Source: Candidatus Brocadia sp.
GTDB lineage: Bacteria > Planctomycetota > Brocadiia > Brocadiales > Brocadiaceae
Direction of reading: 5' to 3'
Assembly: GCA_021650915.1 (NCBI GenBank)
Contig: CP091279.1
Location: 2,190,001 to 2,222,000, forward strand
DNA length: 32,000 nucleotides
Position numbers and translations under genes: made by a program. Every line of letters begins with the position of its first letter. Position 1 is the first letter of the stretch. Below the pieces are notes generated by a model that was not told where the DNA came from, ran no database searches, and saw only the letters and a program-made list of their open reading frames with translations. Below, piece by piece: positions 10,916-21,706 of this stretch.

Positions 10916-11164
10916 TTATGAAATCCCATCCTTAGCGTCGTTCTGCTGACCAGCTAATTCCTTTGATTTCCACTTGCTTCTTAAATAACGTAAGCCAACC
11001 AGTGCACTGCCACCGGCTGCAAAAAGGGCATAACTAATTGGCTCAGGCACAGGTTTCGGTGGTTTATTTTTCCTTCCGTTAGCATCTGCAGAGTTGACAA
11101 CGATCATTGTGGACAACACAATGGCAGATAAACAACCTCCAAATGTTAACAATCTTTTTCTCAT
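10916..11164 (-). CDS. Mini PEP-CTERM protein (82 aa), copy 1
   Basis: The ATG at 11164 is preceded by AAAGGAGGAATGGAAT. The sequence is MRKRLLTFGGCLSAIVLSTMIVVNSADA (signal peptide) - NGRKNKPPKP - VPEP - ISYALFAAGGSALVGL (TM) - RYLRSKWKSK (basic cluster). This is the canonical PEP-CTERM sorting signal. The track start at 11215 is an upstream TTG. Confidence 0.8.
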   Translation of the reverse strand: MRKRLLTFGGCLSAIVLSTMIVVNSADANGRKNKPPKPVPEPISYALFAAGGSALVGLRYLRSKWKSKELAGQQNDAKDGIS

Positions 11165-11281
11165 ATTCCATTCCTCCTTTTTAGCGATTTTGTTAAATTT
11201 TCCATTACAACACAATTTTTGTCAGTTACCCGTTCCTTTTTCCCTCACCCTATAAACCGGCATTAGGGTAAGTACTTGACA

Positions 11282-11509
11282 TTATTCTGCTGACAAATCA
11301 CTTCCTTTTGATTTCCACCTGCTTCTTAAATAACGTAAACCAACTAACGCACTACCTCCGGCGGCAAAAAGGGCATAACTAATCGGCTCCGGCACAGGTT
11401 TCGGTGGTTTATTTTTCTTTCCGTTAGCATCTGCAGAATTGATAACAATCATCGTGGACAACACAAGAGCAGATAAACAACCTCCAAATGTTAACAATCT
11501 TTTTCTCAT
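11282..11509 (-). CDS. Mini PEP-CTERM protein (75 aa), copy 2
   Basis: It has the same architecture and is near-identical to copy 1 (MRKRLLTFGGCLSALVLSTMIVINSADANGKKNKPPKPVPEPISYALFAAGGSALVGLRYLRSRWKSK). The ATG at 11509 has the same GGAGGAA RBS. Confidence 0.8.
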   Translation of the reverse strand: MRKRLLTFGGCLSALVLSTMIVINSADANGKKNKPPKPVPEPISYALFAAGGSALVGLRYLRSRWKSKGSDLSAE

Positions 11510-11700
11510 ATTCCATTCCTCCTTTTTAACGATTTTGTTAAATTTTCCATTACAACACAATTTTTGTCAGTTACCCGTTCCTTTTTCCCTCACCCTATAA
11601 ACCTGCATTAAGACAAAGCCTGCTGCAAGATTGAGACAGGACAGAAGAAACCGATGCCTGTATTTGCGTATCAGATCCTTCTCTGGAAACAGCTATTAAA

Positions 11701-11876
11701 CAAAAAAAGCCTTACTGCCAACGGATACAACTTTTTTCGGCAGTAAGGCTATCTTTTTCTAGCTCAACTTCCTATTCGCTGGAAAAGATCCTTTCCTTTG
11801 CGTCCCCCGATCACTCGGGGTTTGCCTTTATCGTGTGCTTCTATCTTTCAGAGCTCAGCATGAACTTTTTTTGAGA
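11701..11876 (-). ncRNA. Candidate small RNA / leader: copy 1 of a 3-copy structured motif
   Basis: Box B (11786-11833) contains the hairpin CCCCGA-GUGA-UCGGGG on the minus strand. Box A is the 5' arm of a 12-bp terminator hairpin (11739-11750 pairs with 11708-11719) followed by a U run. A promoter lies upstream (next feature). The 5' end is inferred from the promoter only. Confidence 0.35.
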
Positions 11877-11882
11877 TATTGC

Positions 11883-11912
11883 AGTATATGTTATCACAGA
11901 ATTCATTGTCAA
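11883..11912 (-). promoter_or_regulatory. Sigma70-type promoter facing the motif copy 1
   Basis: The minus strand reads TTGACA (complement of 11907-11912), an 18-nt spacer, then TATACT (complement of 11883-11888). It starts 43 nt after the folC stop. Confidence 0.5.
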
Positions 11913-13821: not shown

Positions 13822-15673
13822 AGTGTCTGAACGAAAACGCACTTTTTGTAAAAGTGCGAGGTCGATTTTCTATTTACCAATAGATAATTTTAAGATTTGA
13901 GATTAGGGTTTTTGGCAAAAATACTGTTCTTTTACATATTTCCCTTGTTTTCCCCTTTATTTTAGCCTTGTCTGGGCGTACCTGCCTCCCGGCAGACTGT
14001 TTTTCTTCGTGTTTTTTGCTTGCTTAGGCGGCTTTTCGCAACTTTTCGCACTGCTTCCGTGCCTTCTCCTGCAGCACGTTTCCCAGCTTGTGCAAATTCG
14101 CAGCTAACACGCCCATTGCACAATATCTTTTAAAGGCATGCAGCCCTTTGTCCGGACACCTATCCAAGCCGTGATGCTCCAAACGATTGATATCCGATTC
14201 TACCGCCGAGTGCTTGTGCCTTAGCTTCTTAAATGTCTTACCCGATTCCTCTTCCTGTTCCGCCTTATTCTTCTTGCCCTTCTTGGGAAGGATTACCTCT
14301 GGTATATACAAACTCAGCAACTCTTTATTCTCTTTCTTGTAAAAACCTTTATCAAAACTTATACTCTTTATTGTGCCTTCTCCGTAACGGCTCAACAACC
14401 TATCTGCCAATGGAATTACCAACGATACATCCGCCTGTTTTTCTCCTACCACATGGTCCACGATGAAACCCCACTGATCGCTTGCTACCAGAATATTATG
14501 TCCCAACTCTACCCTTTTGTTTGACTTGCCTTTGTACAGCCACTCCGTATGCGGCTCAAACAACGAATGAACCTTTTCTGCCGCCGGTATTACCTCATCC
14601 CGGATCACCCTTCTCTCCACCAGGTCTATCTGTTTATTCAACATCCCGTGAAAATACTCCAGTGTCCCTATTTTCCCTGCATGCTTGTCTACCTGGTTCG
14701 TCGTTAGCACCTTTTCGTAGATGGCTAACAGACTCGCTCCTATCTTTTCACTCAAACCCCTCGATAATTCCAAGTAACTCCTCACATGCTCTTCCTTGTT
14801 TTTCCCCCCCGCTGCTTGACGCCTTTGCGCTTATCCTCATCAGCTTTTTTAACTCTCTCCTCCAATATTTGCTCTTGCGCCATCCTTTCCCCGCCAGGAT
14901 GCCTTCCTCTATTGCATCCTCTATCATGTCCAGACTCTTGCGTCCCGCATCCCACAATAAATTCATATCGGTCGGAAAGTGTACATTCGTCTCTAACACA
15001 TACGTATCCACCTTAATACACAGTCCTTCGTCCTTTTTTTTAACCAACTGATGCCCCGATGATATCACCACTTCATTTATCTGCCTGAGGGTCTCCTCAT
15101 CCAACAATCTTATATTGTCCTTGATGCTCTGCATCGAAAAAACCTTCGCCTCTCCAAATGCCGTCTCAACCCCCATTATCTGCCTGATAAGTTTGTGATG
15201 GTTGGCAAAATCCTCCAACCTGTCATAATCGGCATCTAACCCTAATCTTACCACCGACAACACCAAAATATGCCATAAATCCATCCCATATCTTCCCGTC
15301 TTTTTCTTCCCCTTCGTTACCTTCGCCTCTAATATCCGGAATACCTCCTCGTTCAACTCCGGTGTAACATAGATATGTTGCAACGCCCTCAGTATCGGTG
15401 GTAGCTCATCTCGACTCTTTATTGGCAGTTTTACCCCTGAAATGGGTATGATGCCAAGCTTCAATTGCTGCTCAAATCTCTTTCTCATCTTCTATCGAAT
15501 GTCCTTTGGCTAGTGGGTTAATGAACCGAATATTTGGACTCTTTATACCCAGAATCCCTTCATTTTCGCCATATTTTACCCTTTTACCCGAAAAAATTCA
15601 ATGACTTTCATGAACATTTTTCACCAGCTTCTCCTTACTTTACAGGGCTCTGGGGGGTTTCCGTTCAAACACT
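13822..15673 (-). mobile_element. 1852-bp IS (IS5/IS1182-like DDE element) nested inside the IS110 transposase gene
   Basis: The terminal inverted repeats are AGTGTCTGAACGAAAACGC (13822-) and the reverse complement of the right end, AGTGTTTGAACGGAAACCC (-15673). The flanking 4-bp direct repeat is AGAT (13818-13821 and 15674-15677). The family assignment rests on a DUF772-like N-terminal region and a DDE-type C-terminal region, and is uncertain. Confidence 0.8.
14024..15488 (-). pseudogene. DDE transposase of the nested IS, split into two overlapping ORFs by a frameshift at a G7A5 run
   Basis: ORFs 14748..15488 and 14024..14785 are in frames +1 apart. Removing one G from the run (complement of 14804-14810) would read ...AKASSSGGKNKEEHVRSYLELSRGL... 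continuously. The C-terminal part contains ...SFDKGFY...HSAVESDINRLEHHGLDRC.... Confidence 0.75.
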
Positions 15674-15677
15674 AGAT

Positions 15678-16634
15678 AAGAACGATAGTCGGATATTTGG
15701 GAAGAAGCTCCCCAATGATCTTGGCTTAATATTAAAGGAATTAAAGCCGTTTCAGAAAGAGATAGAAGGGATCGTGGTAGAGTCGACGTACAACTGGTAT
15801 TGGCTGGTGGACGGATTACAGGCGGCGAAATACAAGGTACACCTGGCAAATCCTGCGGAAATGCAGCAGTATAGTGGAATGCAGTACACGGACGACACAT
15901 GGGATTCCTATTGGTTGGCGCACATGCTCCGATTAGGTATACTGCCGGAAGGCTATATCTATCCGAAAGAGATAAGGCCGGTACGGGATTTATTGAGAAA
16001 GCGAACCATGTTGGTACGGCACCGGACGGCGCACCTATTAAGCCTGCAAAATATGGTGAATCGCAATACCGGAAGAAAGGTGAACGTCAACGATGCGAAG
16101 AGACTGAGCGAAGAAAAGATAAGCGAGCAGTTAACGGACAAACACCACAAAATGGCCGTGCAGAGCGACAAGGCAGTCATAGACTTTTTCCATGAACAGA
16201 TAGACCGGATAGAAAAGGCCGTACTGAAAGAGGTAAAATTACGATATCCGTATGAAGAACTGCTCACCGTGCCGGGGATAGGCAAGATATTAGGGATAAC
16301 GATCATGCTTGAGACCGGAGATATCAACCGATTTCCCACGGTATCAGATTATTCTTCATACTGCCGGTGTGTATCGTCCCAAAAGATATCAAACGGGAAG
16401 AAGAAAGGAGAGGGGAATAAGAAGAACGGGAATAAGTATTTGGCATGGGCATATGTGGAAGCGGCAAATTTTATGCGGAGGTATAGTGAACCTGCCAGGA
16501 GTTGGCATCAACGCAAGGCAGCGAAGACGAACAAGATCGTGGCGATTAAGGCATTGAGTAACAAGGTAGCCAGGGCGTGCTACTTTATCATAAAAGACCA
16601 AACGCCATTTGATCCGAAGAAATTATTTCAATAG
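15678..16634 (+). pseudogene. IS110-family transposase, 3' fragment (318 codons)
   Basis: This is the in-frame part of track ORF 15534..16634, beginning at KNDSRIFGKKLPNDLGLILKELKPF. The 48 upstream codons are read-through of the nested IS end. Confidence 0.8.
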
Positions 16635-17812: not shown

Positions 17813-18817
17813 TCAACTATTTCGCCAAGCCATCATGTTGTTGAAAACCGCCGCAACAATGCGAGTCGAACTATTTGGACAACCGCCATAGGCGTGGATA
17901 CCCACCGCATGACGCTGACCATTAAGGTAACGCCACGTTGGACTACCGCTTTGTCCGCCGTACGTGTCGAGCATATAGTAGAGTTTGCGAGCGGTCATGT
18001 TGGTTATCCTGCCAGCATTGAACCACTGTGTACCGGGTGGTTTGTCACCAGGGTACCCAGAGTTGTTCGCGAGAAGGTTTAGTAGCGAGGCATCCGTCAG
18101 TGCTGCGAAGCCGAACCAGCCGACCTGATTCCCGAGCGAAGCACTGGACAAAATGATGCATCCATAATCGTAGTTCGGGTCGGCATTATTCGTCCAACCA
18201 GTGACGCTACGGAAAGACGTTCCGATCATCGATCCATACGGCCGCGATGCTCCTCGCATGCCTGGAATGACCTCGATCTGACGTGCCCAACCACCGTTGG
18301 CGCTAGAATAGACGCAGTGTCCGGCGGTCATCACTGCTTTAGGGCCAATGAACCAACCTGTGCACCCACCACGCGCGCCGTTTGGAAACGTGATTATTAG
18401 TTTGCAGATCCACCGCCATGGGACCACGGTAGTGCTTGTTACCTCGACACGGTCGTCTCGACCACACACACTCTCAAGTGGAGATCCTTCCGGCCTGCAC
18501 TCACACAGGTCAACCAATTCGTCGGTAAGAATCTCCACTGGCATTCCTTCACCGAGCGCCCGTTGCGGATCAAAGCCTGGCAAGCTTTCAAGTTCCCCGC
18601 CCCGTGGCTCTCCGTCAAAACTCTCAGCGACTTGATCAACGGTCACTGCCGCTTCCCCCCCCGCCATGCCTTCGAGGCGTCCCTCGCTACTGACTGGGGC
18701 ATGCAGAGAACCTGTAGACTCGCCTGAACTGCCGCCACCGCCACATCCACCGGGCTGTGAGTCACCGACATTCCCGGGTCTTTCTGTTCCGGAACTACTC
18801 TCATGGTGTTGAGACAT
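17813..18817 (-). CDS. Trypsin-like S1 serine protease (V8/Glu-specific-endopeptidase-like, COG3591 type) with a Gly/Ser/Glu-rich N-terminal extension and no recognisable signal peptide
   Basis: The catalytic contexts are MTAGHCV (His), YDYGCIIL (Asp) and DTYGGQSGSPTW (Ser). The strong RBS AAAGGAGGTTATC precedes the ATG. The N-terminal ~130 aa are low-complexity and acidic (SQPGGCGGGGSSGESTG...). Confidence 0.85.
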   Translation of the reverse strand: MSQHHESSSGTERPGNVGDSQPGGCGGGGSSGESTGSLHAPVSSEGRLEGMAGGEAAVTVDQVAESFDGEPRGGELESLPGFDPQRALGEGMPVEILTDELVDLCECRPEGSPLESVCGRDDRVEVTSTTVVPWRWICKLIITFPNGARGGCTGWFIGPKAVMTAGHCVYSSANGGWARQIEVIPGMRGASRPYGSMIGTSFRSVTGWTNNADPNYDYGCIILSSASLGNQVGWFGFAALTDASLLNLLANNSGYPGDKPPGTQWFNAGRITNMTARKLYYMLDTYGGQSGSPTWRYLNGQRHAVGIHAYGGCPNSSTRIVAAVFNNMMAWRNS

Positions 18818-19015
18818 GATAACCTCCTTTAACTCGTAATTGGGACCCCCATTGAACCGTGTCGTGCTGGCGGGTCCGATGCCAAGCCGTTCGACTTACT
18901 GTTTAGTGTGTGTATGGGTTTCGCTCTTTCCTTTAACACATCCTTTCTTGTCTGGTGCGGGCAATCAATGTGGCCTAACAAAAAAGTCTCACAACAAAGG
19001 TGTCCCCTAAACATC

Positions 19016-19145
19016 TTCGGCAGTAAGGCTGTCTTTCTATTTTCCTGAAATCCCCCTTAGTCCCCCTTTTATAAAGGGGGGATTTAGGAGGATTAAAGAC
19101 CCCATTACTTTGCGTCCCCTAATCACTCAGGGTTTGCCTTTGTCG
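19016..19145 (-). repeat. Copy 2 of the 3-copy structured motif (no terminator 3' arm; expanded spacer containing a C/G palindrome)
   Basis: Box A is at 19016-19040. Box B is at 19098-19145 with the hairpin CCCUGA-GUGA-UUAGGG (one G.U). The spacer holds CCCCCTTT-TAT-AAAGGGGG (19062-19080). The element starts directly after the stop codon of the 94-aa ORF. Confidence 0.5.
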
Positions 19146-19430
19146 TTATGTTTTTTGTTGTATTGCCTTTATTCCTTCATACCTGCTCCGATTTATTCGA
19201 TAGTAGATATGTGCATCTTTTCCTTTGTGCTCAAGCAGAATGCCTTGCGCTACCAGTTCCGAGAGAGATTCTTTGACCTCACTTGCCTTATGCCTGACCT
19301 TTTGCTTCAACAACCACCATTCCGCGACACCCTCCAGCGTGTCCTCTGCATCGGGATATTCGGACAGATAGGCTAGTATCTCCTGCATAATGTATGGCTT
19401 TCCCGTCGCACACTTTTCATGCTTGTCCAT
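19146..19430 (-). CDS. Small hypothetical protein (94 aa) with a C-terminal winged-helix-like segment
   Basis: The sequence is MDKHEKCATGKPYIMQEILAYLSEYPDAEDTLEGVAEWWLLKQKVRHKASEVKESLSELVAQGILLEHKGKDAHIYYRIN.... It has globular composition and sits about 75 nt downstream of a sigma54-type promoter. There is no strong SD. Confidence 0.55.
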   Translation of the reverse strand: MDKHEKCATGKPYIMQEILAYLSEYPDAEDTLEGVAEWWLLKQKVRHKASEVKESLSELVAQGILLEHKGKDAHIYYRINRSRYEGIKAIQQKT

Positions 19431-19869: not shown

Positions 19870-21315
19870 TTAGTTCTTTTCTTTTGGGTGAGACGGGGTA
19901 ATGCTATGTGTTTTGGTCCTATAGTTTTCCGGGTTGATGTGGTGTTTACGGATCAGTTGCCAGAATGCCCGACGATCCTTCCTGGCGGCCTGTGCCGCTT
20001 TGGTAATGTTGCCGTGATGGGCAAGCAAGAGGCATTGAATATACGCCGTTTCAAATTGTGCGATGATCCTCTCTTTTGCTTCCTGAAAAGACTCCGCCTG
20101 CACACCGGTTTCCGGAGACGGTAGGGCAAGATCTTCTTTCCCTATAATCCTCTGATCAGAGAGGACAACTGCCCGCTCGATTACATGCTCCAGTTCTCTC
20201 ACATTACCATGCCAGTCAAGGAGCGGGAGGAGTTGCAGTGCATCAGAGGAGAATTCGACGGCCTGTTTGTTGTACTCGTCTGCATACTGAGACAGGAAAT
20301 GTCTGGCGAGAAGGGGAATGTCGTTGCGTCGTTCCCGCAGGGGGGGCAGGACGAGGTGGATGACGTTTAATCGATAGTAAAGATCCTGGCGGAATCTCTC
20401 CGCCCTTACCGCCTCTTTCAATTCGGCATTCGATGCGGCAATGACCCGCACGTCTGCCTTGCATACCTTCGGAGAACCGAGCGGCCGGTATTCTTTCTCC
20501 TGGAGAAAGCGCAGCAATTTGACCTGCGCAGGGAGGGAAAGACAGTCTATTTCATCCAAAAAAAGTGTACCACCCGCAGCCTCCTGGATTAACCCCTGTT
20601 GGGATGAAGTGGCGCTGGTAAATGCGCCCGGCTTGTGGCCGAAGAGTTCGTTTTCGAGCAGTTCCGTGGGAATGGCGCCGCAGTTGACCGGGATGAACGG
20701 CTTGTCCGCCCGCGGGCTGAGATAATGGATCGCCCGGGCGCATACCTCCTTCCCGGTGCCGGTTTCTCCACTGATCAGGACCGTTGCGTCACTCTTCGCC
20801 ACACGGGGGATTTTCTGTATCTCTGCCAGAAAGGCCGGATCTTTCCCGATGATGTGTTGCAGTCCAACCTTTTCCAAAAGGGTTTGGTGGAGTATTTCTG
20901 TCGGCGTATTTTGCACCAGTAATCGCCAGATACGGGGAATGATATCGGCTGGTCTGAGCGGTGGCGTAATGAAATCGGTTACACCAGCCTTAAGCAAATC
21001 AAGGATCTCCTCATGCGGACATTCGTCTATGACCAGAATGACCGGTGTTTTCATAAATTTGGTTCGTAAAGACTGCAAGAGTGCACTGGCATGATGAAAT
21101 AAGGTGTGGGGTGAAATGAGAAGTATTATATCTGGATAGAAACGTGGGGCGATTCCAGCAAGGTCACTGGTAAGGAGATCGGATGCCTCTATCTTTACGG
21201 ATTCATAATGCAACGGGGTGTTTAGGCCGCTGGATGATTCGAGAACCCCTTGCAACATCTGACCAAGACTGGATGTGGGGTTAATATCAAGAAGCAATAG
21301 CTTGCCCTGTTTCAT
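19870..21315 (-). CDS. Sigma54-dependent transcriptional activator (NtrC/AtoC-type bEBP) with a degenerate receiver domain
   Basis: The AAA+ sigma54-interaction domain shows GETGTGKE, ENELFGHKPGAFTSA (a GAFTGA variant), LFLDEID and RQDLYYRL. The Fis-type HTH is HGNITKAAQAARKDRRAFWQLIRKH. The N-terminal receiver-like domain lacks the conserved Asp, Thr and Lys positions. Confidence 0.9.
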   Translation of the reverse strand: MKQGKLLLLDINPTSSLGQMLQGVLESSSGLNTPLHYESVKIEASDLLTSDLAGIAPRFYPDIILLISPHTLFHHASALLQSLRTKFMKTPVILVIDECPHEEILDLLKAGVTDFITPPLRPADIIPRIWRLLVQNTPTEILHQTLLEKVGLQHIIGKDPAFLAEIQKIPRVAKSDATVLISGETGTGKEVCARAIHYLSPRADKPFIPVNCGAIPTELLENELFGHKPGAFTSATSSQQGLIQEAAGGTLFLDEIDCLSLPAQVKLLRFLQEKEYRPLGSPKVCKADVRVIAASNAELKEAVRAERFRQDLYYRLNVIHLVLPPLRERRNDIPLLARHFLSQYADEYNKQAVEFSSDALQLLPLLDWHGNVRELEHVIERAVVLSDQRIIGKEDLALPSPETGVQAESFQEAKERIIAQFETAYIQCLLLAHHGNITKAAQAARKDRRAFWQLIRKHHINPENYRTKTHSITPSHPKEKN

Positions 21316-21338: not shown

Positions 21339-21492
21339 AAAAAAAGCCTTACTGCAAAAATGTTTTGGGAAAACACCTTCGGCAGTAAGGCTATCTTTTC
21401 TTGTGGCAAGGCTATCTTATGAACTCACATCCCTGTACGTCTCAAGACCCTTTCCTTTGCGTCCCCTGATCACTCAGGGTTTGCCCTTATCG
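21339..21492 (-). repeat. Copy 3 of the 3-copy structured motif, ending in an intrinsic terminator ~24 nt upstream of the bEBP start codon
   Basis: Box B is at 21445-21492 with the hairpin CCCUGA-GUGA-UCAGGG. Box A forms an 11-bp hairpin (21382-21392 pairs with 21345-21355) followed by a U run (complement of 21339-21344). The sequence TTTATTTATATAAAAAAGGGGGCTTT-ATG follows. Confidence 0.5.
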
Positions 21493-21646
21493 AAATGTAT
21501 CTGTTAGATATGTGAGCAAAACAAACGCCAATGCCATGGCATGAGAAAAATTGTTTGCAAAATTATTTGATATGCCGTGAGTTTTAATCACTTATAAACA
21601 AAAAAAGAAAGGTTTGAATAACAACAGATGAATGCAAAAGATATTC

Positions 21647-21706
21647 GAAAAGTGTGTCATGGCACACTTGTGTGACGTTACACTTGTGTGCCATGACACA
21701 CTTTTC
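21647..21706. promoter_or_regulatory. 60-bp palindrome (two perfect 21-bp arms), candidate regulator/enhancer binding site
   Basis: GAAAAGTGTGTCATGGCACAC (21647-21667) and its exact reverse complement (21686-21706) are separated by 18 nt. ACACTTGTGTG is also directly repeated (21664 and 21680). Confidence 0.5.

Follow-up and report, generated by a model that had tools for sequence, protein, structure and literature searches.

The window analysed here, 32,000 nucleotides (nt) of Candidatus Brocadia sp. (contig CP091279.1 of NCBI GenBank assembly GCA_021650915.1, positions 2,190,001 to 2,222,000), carries three loci at which two conserved sequence boxes, Box B and Box A, are separated by a variable spacer. 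Copy 1 lies between folC and two tandem genes for PEP-CTERM mini-proteins, copy 2 upstream of a gene for a trypsin-like serine protease, and copy 3 upstream of a gene for a sigma-54-dependent activator. A sequence-only reading of the window had pointed out the two boxes, which are present at the three loci, on the minus strand, exactly as it wrote them. The three loci are very probably the 5' leaders of messenger RNAs, each with a riboswitch of the c-di-GMP-I (GEMM-I) class, for which control by the ligand, cyclic di-guanosine monophosphate (c-di-GMP), with an ON logic is proposed.

Family assignment and fold

The entire window was scanned against Rfam at curated gathering thresholds, and exactly three matches were returned, each of them a minus-strand match to the c-di-GMP-I clan (CL00126), with scores of 54-62 bits. 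A family covariance model (R1), built from 48 copies and run on 738 kb of fetched loci, finds 127 copies of the element. The three aptamers of the window, with their scores in both searches, are:

11735-11838, minus strand: copy 1 aptamer, containing Box B, the spacer and Box A; Rfam match at 11735-11835 to RF03167 (62.1 bits, gathering score 59, E = 1.4e-12); R1 score 100.6 bits
19015-19150, minus strand: copy 2 aptamer, with a long, self-paired insert in helix P2; Rfam match at 19016-19148 to RF01051 (54.3 bits, gathering score 35); R1 score 96.8 bits
21377-21497, minus strand: copy 3 aptamer; Rfam match at 21378-21495 to RF01051 (56.7 bits, gathering score 35); R1 score 113.5 bits

In a permissive Rfam scan, copies 2 and 3 score 55.6-57.0 bits with RF03167, the 'GGC' variant of the class, so that the gap to RF01051 is at most 1.3 bits, and no fourth copy comes up in the window. 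The motif had been put forward as an unrecognised family that an already described Rfam family could displace; such a family is what was found, all three copies lying in the c-di-GMP-I clan above gathering scores. The riboswitch class is already known, its anatomy here is textbook, and nothing is new in kind for RNA biology.

Box B corresponds to the 5' junction, a two-pair mini-helix and the first hairpin with its GNRA (GUGA) tetraloop, and Box A to the P2 helix's 3' strand together with the ligand-contacting CUGCCGAA junction. What was called the "variable spacer" makes up the distal part of P2, at a place where the Rfam model, too, carries a variable-length insertion; it measures 39, 71 and 56 nt in copies 1, 2 and 3, not the roughly 25-60 nt first estimated, and the variable P2 insert spans 26-166 nt across the family. 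In copy 1 the parts of the aptamer are placed as follows:

11805-11820, minus strand: first hairpin, a 6-bp stem (CCCCGA/UCGGGG) closed by the GUGA tetraloop (11814-11811) and backed by covariation
11742-11797, minus strand: helix P2, with 5' strand 11797-11785, 3' strand 11755-11742 inside Box A, and distal part 11784-11756
11826, minus strand: equivalent of G20, the first G of GGCAAA, placed by the Rfam alignment
11799, minus strand: equivalent of A47, the first A after GACGC, left blank in the match line against the G of the 'GGC' model
11739-11740, minus strand: the CC of the invariant junction CUGCCGAA, one of the two being the C92 equivalent that pairs with the ligand

The second C of this pair is most likely the C92 equivalent.

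The fold of the c-di-GMP-I family is already known from crystal structures. Across the three window copies, the folding energies of the leaders correspond to z scores of -4.2 to -4.9, with none of 200 shuffles folding equally well, and a copy 2 transcript limited to the aptamer adopts the aptamer shape unaided. At pair 4 of the first hairpin, copy 1 has C-G where copies 2 and 3 have U-A, and pair 5 is G.U in copy 2. A search pattern that left pair 4 free (Y with R) collected 108 copies, with U-A in 86, C-G in 13, U.G in 9 and C.A in none, against about 10.4 C.A expected under independence (Fisher p = 2e-11 for non-independence, relatedness ignored). In the 127-copy alignment, 93.1% of pairing cells are paired, against 27-50% when the 3' partners are slid, both sides have changed at 11 of 20 pairs, and the observed covariation score was reached by no shuffle; the copies are interrelated and the alignment derives from a fit to the model, which makes these pairing numbers supportive and not formal statistics. 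The claims of a 6-bp, GUGA-capped hairpin with compensatory changes and of a structured minus-strand RNA are both upheld. The GUGA tetraloop is found in all three window copies, and the columns of the canonical receptor (CUAAG...AUG) align poorly, with low posterior probability.

The P2 insert of copy 3 holds an element of the form UAC-A[ACG]GGA[AUC]G-UA (21426-21437, minus strand), and it is the only window copy that has it. Of 113 family inserts, 43 carry the element at a fixed offset of about 20 nt past Box B, where shuffles would give 5 (maximum 13); a tertiary contact and a protein-binding site are both possibilities.

Expression platforms and the direction of control

Around the aptamers, the following elements bear on initiation and termination of transcription:

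11883-11912, minus strand: sigma-70-like promoter upstream of copy 1 (TTGACA 11912-11907, 18-nt spacer, TATACT 11888-11883), a consensus match only
11698-11750, minus strand: intrinsic terminator of copy 1, a 14-bp hairpin in the minimum-energy fold, with 5' arm AGCCUUACUGCCGA (11750-11737) and 3' arm 11721-11708
18980-19027, minus strand: degraded expression platform of copy 2, a -10.5 kcal/mol hairpin that uses the CUUAC of the P2 3' strand, with U6 at 18985-18980
21339-21392, minus strand: intrinsic terminator of copy 3, ending in U7, with a 5' arm formed by the P2 3' strand and the junction

The TTGACA-18-TATACT promoter that had been noticed upstream of copy 1 stands: it matches the consensus at 11 of 12 positions and is joint best in 14 kb, in a scan that returned 27 sites overall against 22.6 expected. 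Judged from its position, transcription would start near 11876, about 40 nt ahead of the aptamer. Box A had been described as the 5' arm of a terminator hairpin followed by a U-run, which is correct for copy 1 (14 bp, with the U-run at 11708-11702 followed by GUUU) and for copy 3 and does not hold for copy 2, where 4 of 10 bases of the terminator 3' arm differ from the family's usual GCAGTAAGGC.

In copy 1 the terminator 5' arm AGCCUUACUGCCGA overlaps both the P2 3' strand and the C92 junction, and in both copies with a strong terminator the terminator fold is more stable than the aptamer-enforced one, by 14.8 kcal/mol (copy 1) and 23.0 kcal/mol (copy 3). Of the 105 family copies that could be evaluated, at least 89 have a terminator with 8 nt or more in common with the P2 3' strand, and the median energy of the hairpin is -22 kcal/mol; the anchor pattern used for this count takes in AGATAGCC variants, and window copy 3 was placed by inspection. 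Because aptamer and terminator share a strand in copies 1 and 3, they are mutually exclusive, and a nascent aptamer bound by ligand should therefore block termination, as in an ON switch under kinetic control. Copies 1 and 3 are thus predicted to be ON switches. With no ligand, the terminator would win and transcription would end about 175 nt from the start; with c-di-GMP on the nascent aptamer, the P2 3' strand would be held, the terminator would be blocked, and the polymerase would read into the downstream genes. High c-di-GMP would then give more of the two PEP-CTERM mini-proteins (copy 1) and of the sigma-54 activator (copy 3), and probably more of the secreted-type trypsin-like protease (copy 2), whose regulation is uncertain with its terminator degraded.

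The shared strand also bears on whether these c-di-GMP-I aptamers might turn their genes OFF upon binding, or act on translation. In copies 1 and 3 the terminator takes its 5' arm from the aptamer itself (P2 3' strand and C92 junction), so that ligand can only disfavour the terminator, and the ribosome-binding sites are outside the switching sequences. These two facts make OFF or translational control distinctly unlikely, set against the existence of both ON and OFF members in the class, a start codon only about 24 nt past the U-run in copy 3, and Jettenia-type loci (L011, L045, L063 and L064) that put the terminator 5' arm on a separate, duplicated P2 strand.

Several points weigh against reading the three loci as leaders switched ON by c-di-GMP. 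The only grounds for the predicted ON direction are mutually exclusive pairings and thermodynamic folding. Copy 2 has no convincing terminator, and in its minimum-energy fold sequence from further downstream pairs with the 5' edge of the aptamer; this copy may thus be in decay, constitutive or controlled in another way. Downstream of copy 1, about 180 nt with weak promoter-like sites separate the terminator from the first mini-gene, so that riboswitch-independent transcription of the mini-genes is possible. The PEP-CTERM assignment is itself borderline, as the mini-proteins pass the NCBIfam cut-off and fall under that of Pfam (for the 75-residue protein, whose gene is called in L104, TIGR02595 scores 18.6 bits against a cut-off of 16 and PF07589 18.8 bits against 20.7). 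Finally, the top model for copy 1 is the 'GGC' variant RF03167, and clan competition masks its RF01051 score.

Some further features of the platforms were observed. A degenerate duplicate of Box A, AAGAUAGCCUUGCC, lies inside the P2 insert of copy 3 (21405-21418, minus strand) and, in the minimum-energy fold, takes over the pairing of the real Box A with the P2 5' strand; this duplicate is found also in the orthologous locus L093, is absent from L004 and L101, and could, according to the predicted fold, be a decoy that stabilises the OFF state. Another platform layout is seen at L001, L011, L023, L045, L063 and L064, mostly from Ca. Jettenia, where a separate second version of the aptamer 3' strand AGCCCUACUACCGAA comes after it (ACCUUAC...) and supplies the terminator 5' arm, so that no nucleotides are directly common to aptamer and terminator. 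Upstream of copy 2, an open reading frame (ORF) of 94 amino acids (aa) without Pfam or NCBIfam match (19146-19430, minus strand) stops exactly at the 5' edge of the aptamer, and copy 2 may therefore be transcribed by read-through and not from a promoter of its own. Upstream of copy 3, a good GG-N10-GC match (TTGGCG-N-TTTGCT, 21531-21515, minus strand) was considered as a sigma-54 promoter and rejected, as it is not conserved in three orthologous loci. About 130 nt above this match is a 15-bp perfect inverted repeat, TGTGTCATGGCACAC...GTGTGCCATGACACA (21652-21700, minus strand), likewise not conserved in the three loci; the repeat and the sigma-54-like match resemble an enhancer and promoter driving the sigma-54 activator gene.

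Ligand contacts and other identities

In Vc2 of Vibrio cholerae, the prototype of RF01051, c-di-GMP is contacted by G20, A47 and C92 (PMC6140456, PMC4744006). The equivalents of these nucleotides are canonical in all three window copies, and the distance from G20 to A47 in copy 1 is 27 nt, with no insertions or deletions relative to the model and identical to the spacing in Vc2 and Vc1. All 127 family copies have G in the G20 column, 126 have A in the A47 column, and 123 have C in each of the two C columns, so the copies belong to the canonical c-di-GMP type. The columns of the interhelical pair, a feature named in PMC4744006, are conserved at the sequence level, with C of GACGC in 125 of 127 copies and the bulged G of A-G-CC in 123 of 127.

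The anammox (anaerobic ammonium-oxidizing) copies share with RF01051 and Vc2 the two-helix aptamer, the GNRA tetraloop on the first helix, the GGCAAAC...GACGCAAAG core, the canonical G20, A47 and C92 contacts, the conserved interhelical C and G, and a place in the 5' leader on the gene strand, ahead of surface, pilus and regulator-type genes. They differ in being a very uniform sub-lineage (GUGA loop, CCCUGA/UCAGGG stem, invariant AGCCUUACUGCCGAA strand) with a long, variable P2 insert, in that no evident match to the canonical 11-nt tetraloop receptor is seen, and in that PEP-CTERM mini-proteins and a sigma-54 activator downstream are specific to the anammox lineage.

A different ligand would be expected if these were sensors of 3',3'-cyclic GMP-AMP (cGAMP) of the GEMM-Ib type, or 'GGC' variants of altered specificity. 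GEMM-Ib, exemplified by Gs1761 of Geobacter, has the same fold and an A in place of G20, a substitution that gives the cGAMP-sensing class (PMC6140456), whereas every family copy has G in this column. An A lies directly 5' of G20 in copies 1 and 2 and mimics the A20 variant; the cGAMP reading was rejected for them as G20 is the first, invariant G of GGC, fixed by the 27-nt spacing and by the Rfam alignment. The 'GGC' model RF03167 has an architecture identical to that of the window copies, and its gathering score is passed by copy 1 and by roughly half of the anammox copies that were tested. Its name reportedly encodes positions 20, 47 and 92 (Weinberg et al. 2017, PNAS); the variant is not described in the NAR 2017 paper. 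The defining G after GACGC in its GACGC-G-AAG consensus is, however, absent from the three window copies, which retain A47, as do 126 of the 127 family copies, and on this ground the 'GGC' reading was rejected as well. Given the near-equal scores of RF03167 and RF01051 for copies 2 and 3, the RF03167 label arises from model competition, and altered specificity of either kind is very unlikely. RF03167 also beats the canonical model and passes its threshold in L004, L008, L017, L025, L052, L056, L081, L093, L101 and L103, all of which keep the canonical A. This is a pitfall for annotation, as about half of these canonical aptamers pass the 'GGC' threshold and may be mislabelled by automated pipelines.

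The junction CUGCCGAA is altered in a minority of family copies, to CUGCAAAAG in L090 and L020 and to CUGCCAAAG in L032, L042, L071, L085 and L098. Two of these, L090 and L098, are protease-linked copies of other Brocadia genomes; the junction of window copy 2 is canonical. Such copies might, judging from the altered nucleotides, have a changed affinity or specificity.

The sequence-only reading had left open whether the motif was an independent RNA or a leader. The leader stands; the proposed layout of conserved handle, variable guide segment and terminator does not, since the variable segment is distal P2. Were the element a free-standing RNA of some 175 nt with a trans-acting or guide-like role, its targeting segment would lie exactly where the sequence is flanked by pairing P2 strands and is mostly self-paired. 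The spacers were searched for complementary targets within the window and did no better than shuffled spacers, the longest complement being 9-13 nt against a shuffled mean of about 10 and a maximum of 12-13. The copies stand upstream of same-strand genes, and the whole unit matches a known cis-regulatory family. A guide RNA is for these reasons highly improbable, even though a discrete promoter-to-terminator transcript of about 175 nt would be expected without ligand, the middle segment does differ among copies, and terminated leaders that act in trans are known in other classes, such as the Listeria S-adenosylmethionine (SAM) riboswitches. Judged from box sequence, pairing and orientation, it is most improbable that the boxes mark the ends of a miniature mobile element or belong to another dispersed repeat, for all the high identity over many copies per genome and across genera, the clustering of copies and the insertion-sequence elements at 14024-16634, as Box A and Box B are not inverted repeats, substitutions keep RNA pairing on one strand only, and orientation is tied to the downstream genes.

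Downstream genes and relatives in anammox genomes

With the c-di-GMP-I riboswitch as the preferred identity, the genes that follow the three copies are candidate targets:

11282-11509, minus strand: first gene after copy 1, a 75-aa PEP-CTERM mini-protein in which a signal peptide and about 12-15 residues precede VPEP, and a transmembrane stretch with a basic tail follows it
10916-11164, minus strand: second, tandem PEP-CTERM mini-protein, 82 aa, in the 300-nt duplication
17813-18817, minus strand: gene after copy 2, a 334-aa trypsin-like serine protease (PF00089, E = 2.4e-8) with a good ribosome-binding site, AAAGGAGG
19870-21315, minus strand: gene after copy 3, a 481-aa sigma-54-dependent activator (PF00158, E = 1e-67) with an atypical N-terminal domain

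In the family at large, a same-strand ORF of at least 120 aa starting within 600 nt downstream is present for 70 of 85 copies, against 26 of 85 in the opposite-strand control. The window protease, behind copy 2, has a 42%-identical counterpart behind a GEMM-I copy of Ca. Brocadia pituitae (L090), and in another Brocadia genome (L098) a similar protease of 367 aa is likewise preceded by a GEMM-I copy. The order of riboswitch, terminator and sigma-54 activator is kept in three Brocadia genomes, with proteins 73-75% identical. The N-terminal 150 residues of the activator gave no Pfam receiver-domain match, and the phospho-acceptor context reads DIILLIS, without the terminal Asp; from its sequence, the activator may not be controlled by phosphorylation, in which case the riboswitch could be a main input. 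Other family copies precede genes for N-acetylmuramoyl-L-alanine amidase-domain, DUF1559/prepilin-type, Flp pilin and large secreted proteins, and the gene set is of the classic GEMM "environment, membranes, motility" type.

The riboswitches thus point to a candidate c-di-GMP regulon in anammox bacteria that comprises PEP-CTERM mini-proteins, a trypsin-like protease and a sigma-54 activator, and in relatives amidases, pilins and large secreted proteins. In wastewater treatment, c-di-GMP has already been tied to the aggregation of anammox bacteria and their formation of granules (Guo et al. 2017, cited in PMC13375341), a process to which such a regulon may be connected. No description of riboswitches in anammox bacteria or Planctomycetes was found in the searchable literature. 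The GEMM-Ib riboswitches of Geobacter occur in many copies per genome, with terminator-based ON platforms upstream of extracellular and surface functions. A precedent for copy 1 is offered by Methylophaga nitratireducenticrescens GP59, in which c-di-GMP riboswitches lie beside PEP-CTERM genes and most riboswitch transcripts are higher in biofilm (PMC12530212). The pairing of riboswitch and PEP-CTERM sorting-signal protein is the same there; the phylum differs, the proteins are here only 75-82 aa, and riboswitch class and expression platform are not analysed in that paper.

An exact search for Box B (one genome per species) returned 103 stretches, mostly in anammox Brocadiaceae, with hosts that include Ca. 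Brocadia pituitae, B. sapporoensis, B. carolinensis, Jettenia, Scalindua and Loosdrechtia. Several of the fetched loci hold 3-4 copies in 8 kb, some of them in tandem, at least 11 copies were counted in eight fetched loci of the complete B. pituitae genome, and in 17 of the fetched loci Rfam independently puts the copies in the c-di-GMP-I clan. The FolC protein of the window is encoded identically in three NCBI assemblies, with the common order folC, riboswitch, mini-genes, PSP1/RicT and metG. The GUGA hairpin, the AGCCUUACUGCCGAAGAUGUUU strand and often UAC-ARGGAWG-UA inside P2 recur across paralogues and genera, which is more sequence conservation than the fold requires, so that spread by copy-paste or an added constraint is conceivable. 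It is unlikely, as a fuller proposal, that anammox bacteria have amplified a near-invariant aptamer-terminator cassette to at least a dozen loci per genome, either by copying and pasting of the module or under a constraint on top of cis control, such as a protein partner or a trans or sponge role of the leaders.

The two mini-genes after copy 1 belong to tandem 300-nt units (10962-11261 and 11307-11606) of 94% identity and 345-nt spacing, each comprising a mini-gene and about 95 nt of its 5' region. In a near-identical strain with identical FolC (L107), a single mini-gene follows the same riboswitch, and the duplication is therefore polymorphic. The signal peptide of the mini-proteins ends near ADA and is followed by about 12-15 residues (NGKKNKPPKPV) before VPEP, which would leave almost nothing after processing at both ends; no exosortase gene was noticed among the window ORFs scanned. 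Between folC and the region of copy 2 lie two insertion-sequence genes (14024-16634), namely a DDE transposase apparently split into overlapping ORFs (14024-14785 and 14748-15488) and an IS110-family transposase (15534-16634). In conspecific assemblies an IS110 gene is directly upstream of folC, with other neighbours, which implies rearrangement of the region from strain to strain. Domains of group II introns (RF02003, RF00029) are present at L017 (1191-2109) and L093 (814-957), from Ca. Brocadia pituitae and Brocadia sp. MAG_8, no more than a few kb away from riboswitch copies.

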